Source: Candidatus Omnitrophota bacterium (GTDB taxonomy: Bacteria; Omnitrophota; Gorgyraeia; Tantalellales; Tantalellaceae). From it: 64,000 nt of DNA. How positions within the stretch are numbered: the first letter of the stretch is position 1; every line of letters begins with the position of its first letter. The stretch covers positions 64,189 to 128,188 of the forward strand of contig JADGBR010000004.1 of the NCBI GenBank assembly GCA_015231405.1, written 5' to 3'. The translations under genes were made by a program, and so were the position numbers. Shown here piece by piece: positions 29,974-43,786 of this stretch. The notes below the pieces were generated by a model. That model ran no database searches. It had not been told where the DNA came from and saw only the letters and a program-made list of their open reading frames with translations.

Positions 29974-31383
29974 TTAATCGAGAGGGATTTCACCATCCAG
30001 ATACTTTTTAAAATTCTCATAAAAATGGATCTGCCGATCCTTTCTGAAATCAGGCATATCAATGCAGGTATTAGAATCGCCGATAATATGGTCCTCCGGA
30101 ATATACCCAAGATCCACTGCCATTTTTCTCATTTCCGTCCCTCTGTAAGGCTGAAAATAATTGATAGAAATGCTTTTCGGCCGTATCTTTCTCAAAAGAT
30201 CTATCGTTTCCCTGAACATACATTCTTTTTCATAAGGCATGCCGATAATGATGTTAGCCGTAGTCCTTATGCCGTGTTTATGGACAATATCAAAAGCCTC
30301 GATTATCTTTTCGTTGCTCATATATCTTCTCATGTGTGTTTTTCTCAGTTCCACGTTGCCGTTCTCTATCCCTATGCCGATGGAGGAAACATTGGCATCT
30401 TTTAACTTCTTTATGTAACCCTCACTTATTGTTTCCGGCCTGGTCTGGATGTAAAACGGCAAACCTATCCTGGACTTATATCTTTCACAGAACAGGTCAA
30501 ATCTTTCGGGAGGCATACCCAAAAAATTATCATCTATGAAGAACACCAATTCCAATCCGTACCTATCCTTTACCATTGAAACTTCGTCCATGGTCCTATC
30601 AATATCCCTGAATCTGAGGAAGTCGCCTTTTTTCTCATATAGTTCCTTCAAACTCGCGGTGCAGCAAAACGTACAGTTAAATGGACACCCTCTCGCTAAC
30701 TCAAAAAAACCTGTTCTGAAAAATGAGCCGCAATAAGGCTTGTAGTAATGTCTTTTGTCGAAAATGGACCAATCCTGAAATGAAAGAGTGGCCATATCCT
30801 TTAACGGCCTTAACGGATTTTTTATTATTTTCCCTTCTTTCTTGACCCACAGGTTCTTTATCGCGGCATGGTCCCGCCCTTCAACCAAACTTTCCGCCAG
30901 TTCTACAAGAGGATCCTCCCCTTCCCCGACACACACAATATCTATTCCGTCATTATTGATCACCATATCAGGACACATCGTTACCGTTGGTCCGCCGGCA
31001 ATAACCGGAACCTTCACCGTCTTTCTAAACTCCCCGAGAAGTGCTACGACGAATTTATAAGATACGTCAATTATTGTCACCGCGATAAGATCCGGCCTAA
31101 AATCGTCAACCGCTTTCTTGAACAACTCCGGTATCTTTTCCGGGACCGTAGGATCCCAGTAATCCCCCCAGTATTTCAAGTGATCCGCTTTTAAAACTCC
31201 CCCATGTTTTTGCCTGTACAAATGGGTCTTTGGAGGGGCTTTTAAAAATGTTGTGTCGAAGCACGCGGTTTCGAACCCGGCGGCCTTAAGCCCCCCCGAA
31301 AGCAATGCCAAACCGTTAGGAATACCGCCATCCCCTTCGGTATTGGGATACAAAAAAAGGACCCGCCCCTTAATGTTAAGCAT
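29974..31383 (-). CDS. B12-binding domain radical SAM protein (class B rSAM), paralog 3
   Basis: 469 aa. It has an N-terminal B12-like domain, then CPFNCTFC. It overlaps the upstream sulfotransferase gene by 8 nt. Confidence 0.8.
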   Translation of the reverse strand: MLNIKGRVLFLYPNTEGDGGIPNGLALLSGGLKAAGFETACFDTTFLKAPPKTHLYRQKHGGVLKADHLKYWGDYWDPTVPEKIPELFKKAVDDFRPDLIAVTIIDVSYKFVVALLGEFRKTVKVPVIAGGPTVTMCPDMVINNDGIDIVCVGEGEDPLVELAESLVEGRDHAAIKNLWVKKEGKIIKNPLRPLKDMATLSFQDWSIFDKRHYYKPYCGSFFRTGFFELARGCPFNCTFCCTASLKELYEKKGDFLRFRDIDRTMDEVSMVKDRYGLELVFFIDDNFLGMPPERFDLFCERYKSRIGLPFYIQTRPETISEGYIKKLKDANVSSIGIGIENGNVELRKTHMRRYMSNEKIIEAFDIVHKHGIRTTANIIIGMPYEKECMFRETIDLLRKIRPKSISINYFQPYRGTEMRKMAVDLGYIPEDHIIGDSNTCIDMPDFRKDRQIHFYENFKKYLDGEIPLD

Positions 31384-32194
31384 ATGAAACTAAGTCCCCC
31401 GACTTCCTGTAAAGTTTATCAAAAAGACCGGCATCGTAATATCTAAACCGCTTGATATCGTATTTCTCGTTCACCGTTCTATCGCATATTTCCTTCAGTA
31501 ACACGGGATCTATCTTTTCGGAAGGCGCGATAAAGGATATGACTTTCCAAACCTGTTCATAAGGCCTCTCAATGAGACTCTGGTACGGAATAAAAACTGT
31601 TTTCGGGTTCTTATTTTGAACCACCCATTTTCTCATGAACCTCTTCCATTCAACAAGCACCGGCGGGGTAACTAACAATAGGTTATACCTCAGACACTTT
31701 TTAATTATTCCCGTGATTTTTGAGTGATACAAAAGAACCGCCATAGCTTTCACCAACAAGTTTGACTCGAAAGTCCCCCCGAACACCTCCCTAAGCAGAT
31801 ACGAATGCCAATGGTCAACGCTGATCTTAATTGACGGATCCGACTCTAATGCCCCCTTGGAAACGTAGTTGTACAGAGAAACCAGCGTTTCAACCGGGTC
31901 ACGGTATTGTACTATATACCTCTTAAACGGGTCATTTGGCAATTTAAGATCAAAATCATGATTTTTCTGGAAGTTAGTGACTGATTCGACACAAGGAGTC
32001 CGTCCACAGTGGCTATAGTTTTCGCAGTAATGAAACCGGCCGGCATGTATTATGTTTCGGCACTGAGCGGCTGTGCTTACGTCTCTGATCTCCGGATAAT
32101 TAATATCGCCGCTGAAATATTTCAACAGACAATTGACAAGCAAGTGGTGCCCGCTACGCGGAAAACTAACGCAAATGACCTTTTCTAACGACAT
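31376..32194 (-). CDS. Sulfotransferase family protein (PAPS-dependent)
   Basis: 272 aa. The 5'-PSB-like motif is VSFPRSGHH (compare PKSGTT), and the 3'-PB-like motif is YRDPVE (RDP). Confidence 0.6.
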   Translation of the reverse strand: MSLEKVICVSFPRSGHHLLVNCLLKYFSGDINYPEIRDVSTAAQCRNIIHAGRFHYCENYSHCGRTPCVESVTNFQKNHDFDLKLPNDPFKRYIVQYRDPVETLVSLYNYVSKGALESDPSIKISVDHWHSYLLREVFGGTFESNLLVKAMAVLLYHSKITGIIKKCLRYNLLLVTPPVLVEWKRFMRKWVVQNKNPKTVFIPYQSLIERPYEQVWKVISFIAPSEKIDPVLLKEICDRTVNEKYDIKRFRYYDAGLFDKLYRKSGDLVSYA

Positions 32195-32330
32195 CCCATC
32201 CCTGATTACTTTATGTATATGAAAACCTGATCCCCGTAAAAATTTGTTTCATTATTATACGAAAAAGATTATATTAAGTCTATGTCTTACGACCATCCTT
32301 TTCCCGTTATGCGCAAAAGGCTAAATATTT

Positions 32331-41751: not shown

Positions 41752-42685
41752 ACTTATACCAGAGAATAGTCCTCTTAAGCCCTTCCTCGAAAGACATAAC
41801 GGCTTTGAACCCGAATTCTTTCTGGGCTCTTCGTGTGTCCAGCATCCTTCTGGGCTGGCCGTCGGGCTGGGTCCGGTCCCATATGACCTTGCCTTTAAAA
41901 CCCGCGAGGTCTTTTATGAGCAGCACCAGGTCCTTTATCTTGATCTCCCTCCCGGCGCCAAGGTTCACGGGGTCGGATTTCCCGTATCTTTCGGAGGCGA
42001 GAAGGATCCCGCGCGCGGCGTCTTCGACGTACAGGAACTCCCTCGACACTTTACCCGTTCCCCATACCGTCACTCGCTTCTCGTTCTTCTTTTCGGCCTC
42101 GACGAATTTCTTGATAAGCGCGGGGATCACGTGCGAACTTTTCGGGTTGAAATTATCTCCGGGTCCGTAAAGATTTACAGGAAGAAGAAAAATTGAGTTA
42201 AAGCCGTACTGGGCGCGGTAGCTCTGGGACTGGACAAGCTGCATCTTTTTCGCCAGCCCGTACGGGGCGTTCGTCTCTTCGGGATATCCGTCCCATATAT
42301 CGTCTTCTTTGAACGGTACCGGTGTGAACTTCGGATAAGCGCAGACCGTTCCGATAGCTACGTATTTCTTGACCCCGGCATGCCTCGCCGCTTCCATAAG
42401 CTGTATACCCATTATGGCGTTATCGTAAAAAAGCTCGCCCGGATGTTCCCTGTTGTACCCTATCCCGCCGACATTCGCGGCCAGGTGTATCACTACGTCG
42501 GCCCCTTTAACCGCTTTCCGGCAATTTTCAAGGACACGGAGGTCCGAAGTCCCGATATCCGGGATCCTAATATTCTTCACCGGGACTTTATATTCATCCC
42601 TCAGCCTCCCCACCAAATGCCTGCCGAGAAACCCCCTTCCGCCCGTGATCAGTATCTTCTTGTTCAGCCAGAAGTTAGCCGTCAT
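41738..42685 (-). CDS. fcl: GDP-L-fucose synthase (GDP-4-keto-6-deoxymannose 3,5-epimerase/4-reductase)
   Basis: 315 aa. Motifs [20 protein letters not shown] and [10 protein letters not shown] are diagnostic of Fcl/WcaG. Confidence 0.85.
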
Positions 42686-42781
42686 ATTCTATATCCTCCT
42701 TACTATTTTAAATAGTAGCTCCTCCATTAAAAATCCCGCGCCCCGACATCGCGAACCCCGGGAAGCGGGGTGAAGCGATCT

Positions 42782-43786
42782 CTATTGGGATTGCTTCGTC
42801 GCCTTCGGCTCCTCGCAATGACGGAGCTGATCCAAAATTCTGTCATGGCAAAGGCCATTAGTGGCTATAATGCCGATATTATTCTCGAGCGACCGGTCGA
42901 AACTGAAGTCAAGGGGTTTGCCGGTTATGTCAGTCACTTTGCCTCCGGCTTCTTCTACTATTACGCACCCGGCGGCGTGGTCCCATATCATCTGCCGGTA
43001 GTCCGGGGTTAGAGGCGACTGCATCCTGAGATATGCCGAGACATCTCCTCTCGCCACGAGGGCGTATTTAGCCTGGCCGTCTATACGCGTATGCGGAGCT
43101 GATACTCCAAGCCGTCCATATAAACGGTCATGGGCGGCGTGATCGGTATGGGCTGATTCGAAGCTTTCGACGAATTTGAGTTCACCCGGATCTTTATCGG
43201 CCGAAACATGTATACTCCTGGATACCGATATGTCCTCTATCCATATCACCCGAGCGCCGCGGCGTTTTTCGGCGACGAAAATACAACCCTTCTTCCCGTC
43301 TTCGTAGTCGATGTTCGGACAGCCAAGCGCGCCGAAAAGGATCTCGCCGTTCTCGATCAGAGCCAGGGCTATGGCGTATTGGCCGCCCCTTAAGAACCCT
43401 TTGGTGCCGTCTATGGGGTCGAGCACCCATTTCCTGGACGGCCCTCTTTTATGATCGCAGTCTATCCACCGGGATATGTTCGCTAACGATACTTCCCCGG
43501 GGAAAATATCTCCGACAAGACCCACGATCTGTTCGACCATTTCATTATCGCCGGAAATAAGGCCGGAAGAGTGTTCTTCGGCTACGACGGGTTCTCCCGG
43601 AAAATGTTCGCGGAGTTCCCTGCATATGACGGCCTGGGAGGCGTAATCGGCGACGGTCACGGGGCTTTTGTCGGATTTCTTCTGGGACCGGTACAGGACG
43701 AGATCGGCCTGGACCTTTATGCAGATCCGCGACGCGGCGAGTACCGCCTTAACCGCTATTTCTGTCTCTTTTGTCAGCTCCGCCAT
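42782..43786 (-). CDS. cysQ: 3'(2'),5'-bisphosphate nucleotidase (CysQ/inositol-monophosphatase family)
   Basis: 334 aa. WVLDPIDGTKGF is the metal-binding signature. Confidence 0.75.
   Translation of the reverse strand: MAELTKETEIAVKAVLAASRICIKVQADLVLYRSQKKSDKSPVTVADYASQAVICRELREHFPGEPVVAEEHSSGLISGDNEMVEQIVGLVGDIFPGEVSLANISRWIDCDHKRGPSRKWVLDPIDGTKGFLRGGQYAIALALIENGEILFGALGCPNIDYEDGKKGCIFVAEKRRGARVIWIEDISVSRSIHVSADKDPGELKFVESFESAHTDHAAHDRLYGRLGVSAPHTRIDGQAKYALVARGDVSAYLRMQSPLTPDYRQMIWDHAAGCVIVEEAGGKVTDITGKPLDFSFDRSLENNIGIIATNGLCHDRILDQLRHCEEPKATKQSQ
42787..42822 (+). repeat. Solo copy of the MITE core motif (GGGATTGCTTCGTCGCCTTCGGCTCCTCGCAATGAC)
   Basis: The arms are the same as in the other copies. 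The central spacer is a different small palindrome (GCCttcGGC). It overlaps the cysQ stop codon region. Confidence 0.6.

Follow-up and report, generated by a model that had tools for sequence, protein, structure and literature searches.

A sulfotransferase-fold protein and a HAL2/SAL1-type PAP phosphatase in a glycan biosynthesis locus point to a probably sulfated surface sugar in an Omnitrophota bacterium

Introduction

The stretch of DNA analyzed here (64 kb, hereafter the window) was derived from the MAG of an uncultivated Omnitrophota bacterium and belongs to a locus for glycan biosynthesis that spans about 40 kb or more. The locus raises the question of whether its surface sugar is sulfated, as a preliminary description of the DNA had proposed from two of its genes, one sulfotransferase-like and the other encoding a putative nucleotidase. 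The rarity of sulfated envelope glycans in bacteria, also assumed there, is a dated view. The capsule cluster of Cobetia marina KMM 1449 contains cysNC, cysD, cysQ and a sulfotransferase gene (PMC11766843), a gene cluster for a sulfated capsule has been published for Vibrio sp. KMM 8419 of the marine Gammaproteobacteria (PMC11641403), and sulfated glycoconjugates are, chemically, a common component of environmental EPS (PMC10483923).

Results

A sulfotransferase-fold protein encoded in the locus

The gene and its motifs were as follows.

31376..32194, minus strand: sulfotransferase-fold gene, 272 aa (Pfam Sulfotransfer_1, profile against PDB, AF2 and Foldseek)
32144..32161, minus strand: 5'-phosphosulfate-binding (PSB) loop PRSGHH, residues 12-17 (conservation in 33 homologues)
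31955..31969, minus strand: QKNHD with the K-x-H pair, residues 76-80 (Q76, K77, H79 and D80 invariant in the 33 homologues)
31877..31903, minus strand: 3'-phosphate-binding (3'-PB) motif RDPVETLVS, R98...S106, with RDP at residues 98-100 (conservation and profile-PDB alignment)

The coordinates given for this gene in the preliminary description were correct, and both the PRSGHH and the RDP motifs were present on the minus strand. The HMM search proposed there as a check on the sulfotransferase assignment was passed narrowly, as the product scored 23.9 bits (E 3.2e-5) against Pfam Sulfotransfer_1 with a gathering cut-off of 22, and no match was found among the NCBIfam models. Both the margin of 1.9 bits and the lack of an NCBIfam match count against sulfation. 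The homologues agreed with the assignment, with matches to Sulfotransfer_1 in 18 of the 33, to Sulfotransfer_3 in six and to any other family in none. The search of the family profile against PDB detected sulfotransferases and their fold relatives only (best 2.8e-8). The AF2 model (pLDDT 89.7, pTM 0.86) was compared with PDB by Foldseek, and the best 50 matches were all enzymes that have the sulfotransferase fold and bind PAP(S), with a probability of at least 0.99 each; among them were HS 3-OST, which acts on a carbohydrate, and Teg12 and StaL, which act on glycopeptides. The product is a real sulfotransferase-fold protein. The GenBank version (P0001) is annotated as "hypothetical" and consists of 188 aa starting at residue 85, so that the PAPS loop is lost.

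In the PSB loop, P12, R13, S14 and G15 were invariant among the 33 homologues and H16/H17 were kept in at least 90% of them. Likewise, R98 of the RDPVETLVS motif was invariant and S106 was kept in at least 90%, and this segment was aligned with the 3'-PB region of SULT1B1 in the profile-PDB alignment. Y204 was nearly invariant. The K-x-H pair of QKNHD presumably corresponds to the catalytic Lys/His of cytosolic sulfotransferases, K106/H108 in SULT1E1. The family thus resembles the PAPS sulfotransferases of PF00685 (SULT1B1 3ckl, SULT2A1, HS 3-OST, Teg12 and StaL) in the fold, the PSB loop and the K-x-H pair, and the spacing of the R...S pair for 3'-phosphate binding is equal in both. It differs from them in the low identity (11-19% only), in the shorter chain (about 230 aa in most members), in the PRSGHH loop and in an additional cluster of conserved Cys and His at residues 56-68, which is not known from classical sulfotransferases. 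The loop, with Arg and His-His instead of the Lys and Thr/Ser of the well-studied enzymes, counts against sulfation.

These deviations, namely PRSGHH in place of PKxGT(T/S) and the Cys/His cluster, along with the marginal Pfam score and the lack of a curated NCBIfam model, would be expected if the protein were not a sulfotransferase but an inactive or repurposed P-loop-like fold with another donor. We regard this as very unlikely, because the canonical PAPS-contacting positions are all invariant in the 33 homologues, because sequence, profile and fold all match sulfotransferase families only, and because the family co-occurs with APS kinase. The protein is a member of an uncharacterized, glycan-associated subfamily.

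Coupling of the sulfotransferase gene to glycan genes

The following genes surround the sulfotransferase gene.

29974..31383, minus strand: B12-binding radical SAM (B12-rSAM) enzyme (Pfam B12-binding and Radical_SAM)
32331..33116, plus strand: FkbM-family methyltransferase, divergent from the sulfotransferase gene (Pfam Methyltransf_21, 103 bits)
24621..29839, minus strand: nonulosonate genes for NeuB, NeuC, an rSAM-SPASM protein, a CMP-transferase and a LegC-like aminotransferase (Pfam, NCBIfam)
22811..24610, minus strand: PglK/MsbA-like fused ABC exporter (Pfam ABC_membrane and ABC_tran; NCBIfam PglK-like)

The start of the B12-rSAM gene overlaps the stop of the sulfotransferase gene by 8 nt (ATGCTTAA), and the two genes are translationally coupled. 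The nonulosonate genes lie directly downstream of this pair; in the NCBIfam search, NeuC scored 402 bits against a cut-off of 235.9, NeuB 390 against 399.65, and the exporter 330 bits with the PglK-like model, under its cut-off.

The same associations were found in the loci of the homologues. The pairing with a B12-rSAM gene recurs in another Omnitrophota locus (L009), an FkbM gene adjoins the homologue in L006, and the protein P0277 is a fusion of FkbM and sulfotransferase. Other fusion partners in the family were GT2, GT4, Nucleotid_trans and carbamoyltransferase domains. Sulfotransfer_2 genes adjoin the homologues in L005, L006, L009, L012 and L015, an APS-kinase fusion is located beside them in L001, L005 and L012, and glycosyltransferase or other glycan genes were present in most of the annotated neighborhoods. 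These fusions and neighborhoods, and the operon coupling to glycan genes in the window, argue against an acceptor other than the glycan of the locus, such as a small molecule, a lipid or a protein. Such an acceptor would be consistent with the nearest solved structures, most of which act on small molecules (SULT family, Teg12, StaL), and with the acceptor-binding region, which is variable among the homologues and contains about 45 inserted residues of lower pLDDT, but it appears improbable.

A HAL2/SAL1-type PAP phosphatase between gmd and an fcl-like gene

The second gene and its flanks were as follows.

42782..43786, minus strand: HAL2/SAL1-type 3'(2'),5'-bisphosphate nucleotidase (PAP phosphatase), 334 aa (TIGR01330, Inositol_P, PDB relatives)
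43394..43429, minus strand: WVLDPIDGTKGF, IMPase-superfamily metal-binding motif, residues 120-131 (identical to the SAL1 motif in the alignment)
42968..42985, minus strand: WDHAAG, second IMPase-superfamily metal-binding motif (kept in both the SAL1 and the 4hxv alignment)
43803..44867, minus strand: GDP-mannose 4,6-dehydratase (gmd), 16 nt upstream of the phosphatase gene (TIGR01472, 567 bits against a cut-off of 415)
41738..42685, minus strand: GDP-L-fucose-synthase-like SDR (fcl-like), 96 nt downstream of the phosphatase gene (GDPFucSynFcl, 262 bits; PDB matches)

The preliminary description had named this protein a CysQ-family 3'(2'),5'-bisphosphate nucleotidase. The nucleotidase function was borne out, as the HAL2-type equivalog TIGR01330 gave 291.1 bits against a cut-off of 267.05, whereas strict CysQ identity had to be given up because both CysQ equivalogs failed (105.1 against 228.8 and 84.5 against 379). 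The protein is therefore a PAP phosphatase, yet not a CysQ in the strict sense; the E. coli-type CysQ, to which it has no equivalog-level match, belongs to the same superfamily but branches separately. The match to Pfam Inositol_P was 155.9 bits, the closest solved structures were SAL1 (8f9y, 1.2e-70), 4hxv and HAL2 (1k9y), and the protein is 100% identical to GenBank MBF0216078.1, the annotation of which gives the same function. It shares the equivalog-level match and all metal-binding motifs with HAL2 (yeast Met22) and SAL1 (Arabidopsis), and differs from them in being bacterial and encoded within a glycan operon.

The position between fcl and gmd had been described correctly, although the fcl-like gene scored under the 500-bit equivalog cut-off of GDPFucSynFcl; the best PDB relatives of its product were GDP-L-fucose synthases (2e-59). 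As the phosphatase gene lies inside a GDP-6-deoxyhexose operon, and sugar-phosphate phosphatases exist within the IMPase superfamily, a role as a sugar-phosphate phosphatase of the GDP-sugar pathway was considered. This role is highly improbable: the HAL2 equivalog was passed while the IMPase, histidinol-phosphatase and FBPase models failed, SAL1, 4hxv and HAL2 were matched at E values of 1e-70 to 1e-49 compared with 1e-17 for inositol monophosphatase, and relatives of the protein adjoin APS kinase and ATP sulfurylase genes.

Phosphatase relatives in sulfation modules and the supply of PAPS

The order gmd-phosphatase-fcl was kept in L007 with identities of 96/86/88%, on a 3.2-kb contig in which gmd and fcl were the only visible neighbors of the phosphatase gene (86%). 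Three more distant relatives had readable neighborhoods, namely L029 (54%), L030 (51%) and L008 (50%; Omnitrophota GCA_028715425.1), all from uncultivated bacteria. All three were located in modules consisting of sulfotransferase gene(s), a PK-like gene, PAP phosphatase and APS kinase genes, with a B12-rSAM gene in L029 and L030. The APS kinase gene directly follows the phosphatase gene and is followed by that of ATP sulfurylase in L008 and L030, while the L029 contig ends before this position. The modules of L008 and L030 sit within nonulosonate/polysaccharide loci, and L030 and the window have NeuB, a B12-rSAM enzyme and a sugar O-methyltransferase in common. As far as we found, this module has itself not been studied.

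The window differs from these modules in several respects, although its phosphatase belongs to the same clade (50-54% identity). Sulfotransfer_1/_3 proteins of 314-366 aa precede the phosphatase in the modules, whereas the sulfotransferase of the window is of another subfamily and is encoded 10.6 kb away. The phosphatase gene of the window lies between gmd and fcl, and the PK-like gene, cysC and sat of the modules are absent. The PAPS-synthesis genes, for which the preliminary description had proposed a search of the genome, were sought in the 64-kb window, and neither APS kinase nor ATP sulfurylase genes were detected anywhere in it. This absence, in contrast to the relatives whose phosphatase adjoins such genes, counts against sulfation, as does the distance of the two genes in separate transcription units with plus-strand genes between them.

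The two genes might thus be functionally unrelated, the sulfotransferase sulfating the glycan and the phosphatase being a housekeeping PAP phosphatase placed by chance between gmd and fcl. Besides the separate operons and the lack of adjoining cysC/sat, this explanation agrees with the size of the phosphatase family (>7600 matches, spread over many phyla, with identities of about 50%). PAP also arises from reactions other than sulfation, such as 4'-phosphopantetheinyl transfer, so that a PAP phosphatase can be housekeeping, which again counts against sulfation. We consider an unrelated pair unlikely, if less so than the other alternatives, as the phosphatases of L029, L030 and L008 are all in dedicated sulfation modules, two of the three in glycan loci, the gene order is conserved in L007, and the phosphatase gene is closely packed behind gmd.

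Discussion

Both genes are embedded in glycan operons, and both families are recurrently linked to glycan sulfation genes elsewhere. Taken as a whole, the data are explained best, and with somewhat better than even probability, by PAPS-dependent sulfation of the glycan with a HAL2/SAL1-type phosphatase clearing PAP. The sulfotransferase would transfer sulfate from PAPS to a sugar of the glycan built by the locus, which would contain nonulosonate and probably a GDP-mannose-derived 6-deoxyhexose, and which is probably also methylated by the neighboring FkbM and B12-rSAM enzymes. The phosphatase would convert inhibitory PAP to AMP and phosphate and keep sulfation going, and PAPS would be made by genes beyond the window. 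That the two enzymes act in one pathway is our inference, as are the nature of the acceptor and the supply of PAPS. The sulfated fucose or sulfated nonulosonate suggested in the preliminary description is a guess.

The occurrence of sulfotransferase, cysQ and PAPS genes within capsule clusters is already published (Cobetia marina, PMC11766843). The window resembles the Cobetia and Vibrio clusters in having a sulfotransferase gene (in Cobetia also a PAP phosphatase gene) inside a polysaccharide cluster with sugar-nucleotide genes, glycosyltransferases and an ABC exporter. Unlike the window, those clusters contain genes for PAPS synthesis (cysNC/cysD or cysNDC), and their phosphatase is of the CysQ type instead of the HAL2/SAL1 type. 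The sulfotransferase of the window is of another, uncharacterized subfamily. The Synechocystis synechan (xss) system for a sulfated exopolysaccharide is likewise a polysaccharide cluster of a bacterium that has its own dedicated sulfotransferases, in another phylum and with another assembly pathway (PMC8205485).

The proposal that a glycan locus with a sulfotransferase and a PAP phosphatase implies a sulfated glycan is supported by the homologue loci, the fusions and the modules of the phosphatase relatives. With a surface-sugar cluster that encodes both a sulfotransferase and a phosphatase clearing its by-product, the surface sugar of this Omnitrophota bacterium is probably sulfated.

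Sulfotransferase-fold protein encoded in the window

The preliminary description had proposed a glycan sulfation module composed of a sulfotransferase and a CysQ phosphatase. Both genes were located as described, together with the strings PRSGHH, RDP and WVLDPIDGTKGF.

31376-32194, minus strand: sulfotransferase, 272-aa ORF
42782-43786, minus strand: HAL2/SAL1-type PAP phosphatase, 334 aa

A sulfotransferase call failing HMM significance had been set beforehand as refuting the proposal. The score against Pfam PF00685 (Sulfotransfer_1) just passed, at 23.9 bits (GA 22, E 3.2e-5), and an NCBIfam scan of the protein gave no match. 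The assignment was therefore tested at the family level, where the family profile and the AF2/Foldseek analysis agreed with it. A database search retrieved 53 homologues, many of which are already annotated with PF00685, and 33 of them were aligned. PF00685 was matched by 18 of these 33 homologues (best 2.7e-8) and PF13469 (Sulfotransfer_3) by six of the 33, among which no other Pfam family was matched. As the single sequence was uninformative in the PDB search, a family profile was required; its significant matches were exclusively sulfotransferases, SULT1B1 being the best (E 2.8e-8), along with SULT2A1, Teg12, StaL, HS 3-OST and CurM-ST. The AF2 model built on the homologue alignment (pLDDT 89.7, pTM 0.86) showed a three-dimensional fold like that of solved sulfotransferases, as the best 50 Foldseek matches in the PDB were PAP(S)-binding sulfotransferase-fold enzymes, each with a probability of at least 0.99. 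Judged by sequence and model, the protein has the fold of PAPS-dependent sulfotransferases, and sulfate transfer from PAPS is its predicted activity. At E<=1e-30, an exhaustive profile search for the family detected 462 cluster representatives, a number that rose to 1093 at E<=1e-10.

The alignment of 33 homologues revealed P12, R13, S14, G15, Q76, K77, H79, D80 and R98 as invariant and H16, H17, S106 and Y204 as nearly so. The PRSGHH sequence (residues 12-17), located straight after the model strand E6-10, was a variant of the PKxGTT-like 5'-phosphosulfate-binding loop, in which Arg replaces Lys and His-His replaces Thr/Ser. The 3'-phosphate-binding Arg...Ser motif was also present, consisting of R98 and S106 (the latter in at least 90% of the homologues), with the same 8-residue spacing as R130/S138 in SULT1E1. 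The K-x-H pair K77/H79 was on the model strand E75-79, and by analogy H79 is the predicted catalytic base with K77 close by. A Cys/His-rich stretch, YCENYSHCGRTPC, occupied residues 56-68 (window 31991-32029), with Y56, C57 and Y60 and, mostly, H62, C63 and C68. These residues were kept in most family members, and no such cluster is known to us from classical sulfotransferases; either a metal site or a disulfide is conceivable. In GenBank the protein (P0001) is annotated as hypothetical, with only 188 aa and its start at Leu85, and so is without the PAPS-binding loop. According to the homologue alignment, the full 272-aa ORF is the correct extent of the gene and the GenBank start is wrong.

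Glycan biosynthesis locus

The sulfotransferase gene was flanked by genes for glycosyltransferases, nonulosonate synthesis, an ABC exporter and sugar-nucleotide synthesis, which placed it within a glycan biosynthesis locus. This very large minus-strand locus extends from approximately 11.6 kb to 49.6 kb (the last gene ends at 49570) and encodes GT2 and GT4 glycosyltransferases, a PglK/MsbA-like ABC exporter, several methyltransferases, a PMT_2 membrane glycosyltransferase and a gmd/fcl pair. The nonulosonate set consisted of NeuB, NeuC (402 bits, above the cut-off), a CMP-transferase and a LegC-like aminotransferase. The sulfotransferase gene was followed by a B12-radical-SAM gene, the stop of the former and the start of the latter overlapping by 8 nt. 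The NeuB/NeuC genes began 135 nt downstream of the B12-radical-SAM gene, and the divergent neighbour of the sulfotransferase gene encoded an FkbM methyltransferase. Promoter and terminator scans yielded bare consensus matches, among them sites of 10/12 before the sulfotransferase gene and of 12/12 before NeuB, and these were given no weight as evidence.

Five radical SAM enzymes were encoded in the locus, a density unusual for a polysaccharide cluster.

14990-16642, minus strand: radical SAM enzyme
18519-19925, minus strand: radical SAM enzyme
26573-27655, minus strand: radical SAM enzyme (rSAM-SPASM)
29974-31383, minus strand: radical SAM enzyme (B12-binding, adjoining the sulfotransferase gene)
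46951-48018, minus strand: radical SAM enzyme

Three of the five were B12-binding and likely of the methyltransferase type, one was STM4011-like, and the rSAM-SPASM protein was encoded inside the nonulosonate operon. The latter was considered as an anaerobic sulfatase maturase (anSME) for the nearby sulfatase and rejected, since no anSME model matched; its best NCBIfam score, 75 bits versus a cut-off of 380, was against a model of tungsten-cofactor rSAM maturases.

Several other genes of the window were recorded.

1-430, minus strand: HisH-like fragment at the left window edge
445-1338, minus strand: WbuZ/HisF-like gene (263 bits, cut-off 299.7)
5440-6600, minus strand: DUF4143/AAA_14 ATPase
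10912-11370, plus strand: HepT-like nucleotidyltransferase-substrate-binding protein, toxin-antitoxin type
33127-34422, minus strand: GDSL-type hydrolase
34474-35214, minus strand: papain-family C1 cysteine peptidase
53233-54894, minus strand: sulfatase, 553 aa, hydrophobic N-terminus (PF00884, 187.8 bits)

The HisH-like fragment and the WbuZ/HisF-like gene suggested that the glycan locus continues leftward, probably past the window edge, and the pair suggests acetamidino modification of a sugar. The genes for the DUF4143/AAA_14 ATPase and the HepT-like protein, lying amid glycan genes, suggest mobile or defence insertions. The genes for the GDSL-type hydrolase and the C1 peptidase, the latter unexpected here, lay within the glycan locus and upstream of the operon with the sulfotransferase gene. 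The sulfatase gene was located approximately 3.7 kb past the last gene of the locus, and its product scored below all NCBIfam cut-offs. Neither a formylglycine-generating enzyme nor an anSME was recognised in the window.

Sulfotransferase homologues in other genomes

The linkage of the sulfotransferase family to glycan and sulfation genes was sampled in approximately 25 loci. In three of them (L001, L005 and L012), a fusion protein of 268-272 aa, joining APS kinase to a cytidylyltransferase-like domain, was encoded approximately 5 kb from the sulfotransferase homologue.

L001, 15373-16191: APS-kinase/cytidylyltransferase-like fusion
L005, 8210-9016: APS-kinase/cytidylyltransferase-like fusion
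L012, 13759-14565: APS-kinase/cytidylyltransferase-like fusion

In all three loci the fusion was near Sulfotransfer_2 genes as well as this sulfotransferase family. The three fusion proteins shared 79-86% identity, which is oddly high for distinct sources including one Staskawiczbacteria MAG. Sulfotransfer_2 genes accompanied the homologues in L005, L006, L009, L012 and L015. An FkbM gene adjoined the homologue in L006, and gmd and/or fcl were located within 4 kb of it in L006, L014 and L018. The set found in the window was repeated in L009, from an Omnitrophota MAG, which carried genes for the B12-radical-SAM enzyme, the sulfotransferase, a further glycosyltransferase, a GT4 and a GT2.

The fusion partners in the multi-domain members examined were GT2, GT4, Nucleotid_trans, FkbM methyltransferase and carbamoyltransferase. 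This pattern is the signature of a glycan-modifying, rather than a small-molecule, enzyme. Tandem or duplicated sulfotransferase domains were observed in L001 (10718-12991) and in the homologues P0174, P0176, P0233, P0263 and P0290. Among these, P0174 (2021 aa) had two matched stretches and a C-terminal carbamoyltransferase domain. The 757-aa gene product following the homologue in L001 had its own N-terminal sulfotransferase domain along with Nucleotid_trans. NeuB was missing from most loci of the family, and gmd/fcl were there instead in some, so that the family evidently serves differing acceptors.

PAP phosphatase between gmd and the fcl-like gene

The phosphatase, identical (100%) to GenBank MBF0216078.1 (other proteins of the window are MBF0216042, MBF0216095 and MBF0216096), matched the HAL2 equivalog TIGR01330 over residues 4-317 of 334 with 291.1 bits, above the cut-off of 267.05. 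The name CysQ, used in the preliminary description, did not hold in the strict sense, since the scores against TIGR01331 and NF008182 were 105.1 versus 228.8 and 84.5 versus 379 bits; the assignment as a PAP phosphatase did, and the activity predicted from the sequence is that of CysQ, though the protein is outside the CysQ equivalog. The nearest solved relatives were Arabidopsis SAL1 (1.2e-70), the Entamoeba PAP phosphatase 4hxv and yeast HAL2. The metal-binding motifs of the IMPase superfamily, VVAEE (67-71), WVLDPIDGTKGF (120-131) and WDHAAG (268-273), were all conserved and aligned with those of SAL1 8f9y and 4hxv.

The phosphatase gene was located 16 nt after gmd (43803-44867, minus strand) and 96 nt before the GDP-L-fucose-synthase-like gene (41738-42685, minus strand), in the same glycan locus as the sulfotransferase gene, at a distance of 10.6 kb from it and in a different operon. 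The order gmd-phosphatase-fcl was also found in L007, whose phosphatase was 86% identical. The next relatives with readable surroundings were those in L029, L030 and L008, the last from another Omnitrophota MAG; with minor variation, one module was common to all three.

L029 (54% identity): B12-radical-SAM enzyme, PK-like gene, sulfotransferase, PAP phosphatase, APS kinase; the contig ends there
L030 (51% identity): two sulfotransferases, B12-radical-SAM enzyme, PK-like gene, PAP phosphatase, APS kinase, ATP sulfurylase
L008 (50% identity): two sulfotransferases, PK-like gene, PAP phosphatase, APS kinase, ATP sulfurylase

The sulfation module was set between pseudaminic-type nonulosonate genes and polysaccharide export/assembly genes in two of these loci, L008 and L030. 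The window and L030 had in common NeuB (40%), the B12-radical-SAM enzyme (25-28%) and a sugar O-methyltransferase (39%). The phosphatase clade was thus repeatedly found as a dedicated component of glycan sulfation modules, which counts against the window phosphatase being merely a housekeeping enzyme. When metagenome contigs were scanned for the phosphatase, no more than two loci turned up, both irrelevant.

The PK-like (pyruvate-kinase-like, PF00224) gene, encoding 322 aa and conserved in all three loci (L008, 8158-9126; L029, 1886-2854; L030, 9014-9982), was absent from the window. It directly preceded the PAP phosphatase gene in L008 and L030 and stood one gene (a sulfotransferase) earlier in L029; the gene before it encoded a B12-radical-SAM enzyme in L029 and L030, and a sulfotransferase in L008.

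PAPS supply

No APS kinase or ATP sulfurylase was detected by Pfam among the scanned window ORFs of at least 150 aa, and tblastn of the window gave no match for queries of either enzyme taken from L001, L005 or L008. The window locus, unlike its relatives, is therefore not self-sufficient for PAPS. When compared with modules of the Cobetia cluster or L008/L030 type, the locus contained the sulfotransferase and the PAP phosphatase and lacked the genes for PAPS synthesis.

Discussion

Sulfated glycans had been regarded as rare in bacteria in the preliminary description, a premise that published sulfated capsules and EPS have made outdated. The capsule cluster of Cobetia marina contains cysNC, cysD, cysQ, a sulfate permease gene and a sulfotransferase gene (PMC11766843), and that of Vibrio sp. 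KMM 8419 contains cysNDC and three sulfotransferase genes, a combination that its authors considered a hallmark of sulfated polysaccharide synthesis (PMC11641403). Sulfated synechan is produced by Synechocystis (PMC8205485), and glycoconjugates with sulfate or sialic acid are, by chemical analysis, common in sludge EPS, although the sulfotransferases responsible have yet to be identified (PMC10483923). Capsule clusters combining a sulfotransferase with a PAP phosphatase and PAPS genes are thus already a published concept, and the gain here is incremental. While the Cobetia marina cluster has PAPS genes (cysNC and cysD) together with cysQ, the window has no PAPS genes and a phosphatase of the HAL2 type. 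What is new is the phylum, the HAL2-type phosphatase within a gmd/fcl operon, and an uncharacterised, mis-annotated sulfotransferase subfamily with the PRSGHH loop and the conserved Cys/His cluster. Apart from the strict CysQ assignment and the rarity, the interpretation as glycan sulfation was largely right: the described features are real, and the fold and motifs as well as the genomic associations supported it.

The fold, the motifs, the family assignments and the genomic associations were shown by the analysis, and the following picture is, taken as a whole, reasonably probable in our judgment. The 272-aa sulfotransferase would use PAPS supplied by genes elsewhere in the genome, with H79 acting as the base and K77, R13, R98 and S106 holding the cofactor, and would transfer sulfate to a sugar hydroxyl of the glycan assembled by the window locus. 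The same glycan would be methylated by the neighbouring FkbM and B12-radical-SAM enzymes. Accumulation of PAP inhibits sulfotransferases, and the HAL2/SAL1-type phosphatase would clear it. What we infer is that the two enzymes act together, along with the acceptor and the supply of PAPS.

Nonulosonate genes were next to sulfation genes in the window, L008 and L030, and members of the PRSGHH subfamily repeatedly occurred beside FkbM methyltransferases, carbamoyltransferases and glycosyltransferases or as fusions with them. It is conceivable, albeit rather improbable, that the nonulosonate (or a terminal 6-deoxyhexose) of the glycan bears both a sulfate ester and methyl groups from the radical-SAM/FkbM enzymes, or that the sulfate caps the non-reducing end of the glycan; the PRSGHH subfamily would in that case be the missing enzyme class behind the sulfated glycoconjugates of environmental bacteria, which are abundant by chemistry but lack a genetic explanation. 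To our knowledge, a sulfated bacterial nonulosonate has not been reported.

The favored picture, in which the window sulfotransferase modifies the glycan of its own locus, predicts that an uncultivated Omnitrophota bacterium carries a sulfated, nonulosonate-containing surface glycan. The analysis also draws attention to an unstudied sulfotransferase subfamily that is linked throughout to glycan genes and numbers at least 462 cluster representatives (E<=1e-30). Chemical surveys detect sulfated glycoconjugates widely in environmental EPS without being able to name the enzymes (PMC10483923); this family is a candidate for them, as is the module in which relatives combine a sulfotransferase and a PAP phosphatase with APS kinase and ATP sulfurylase.
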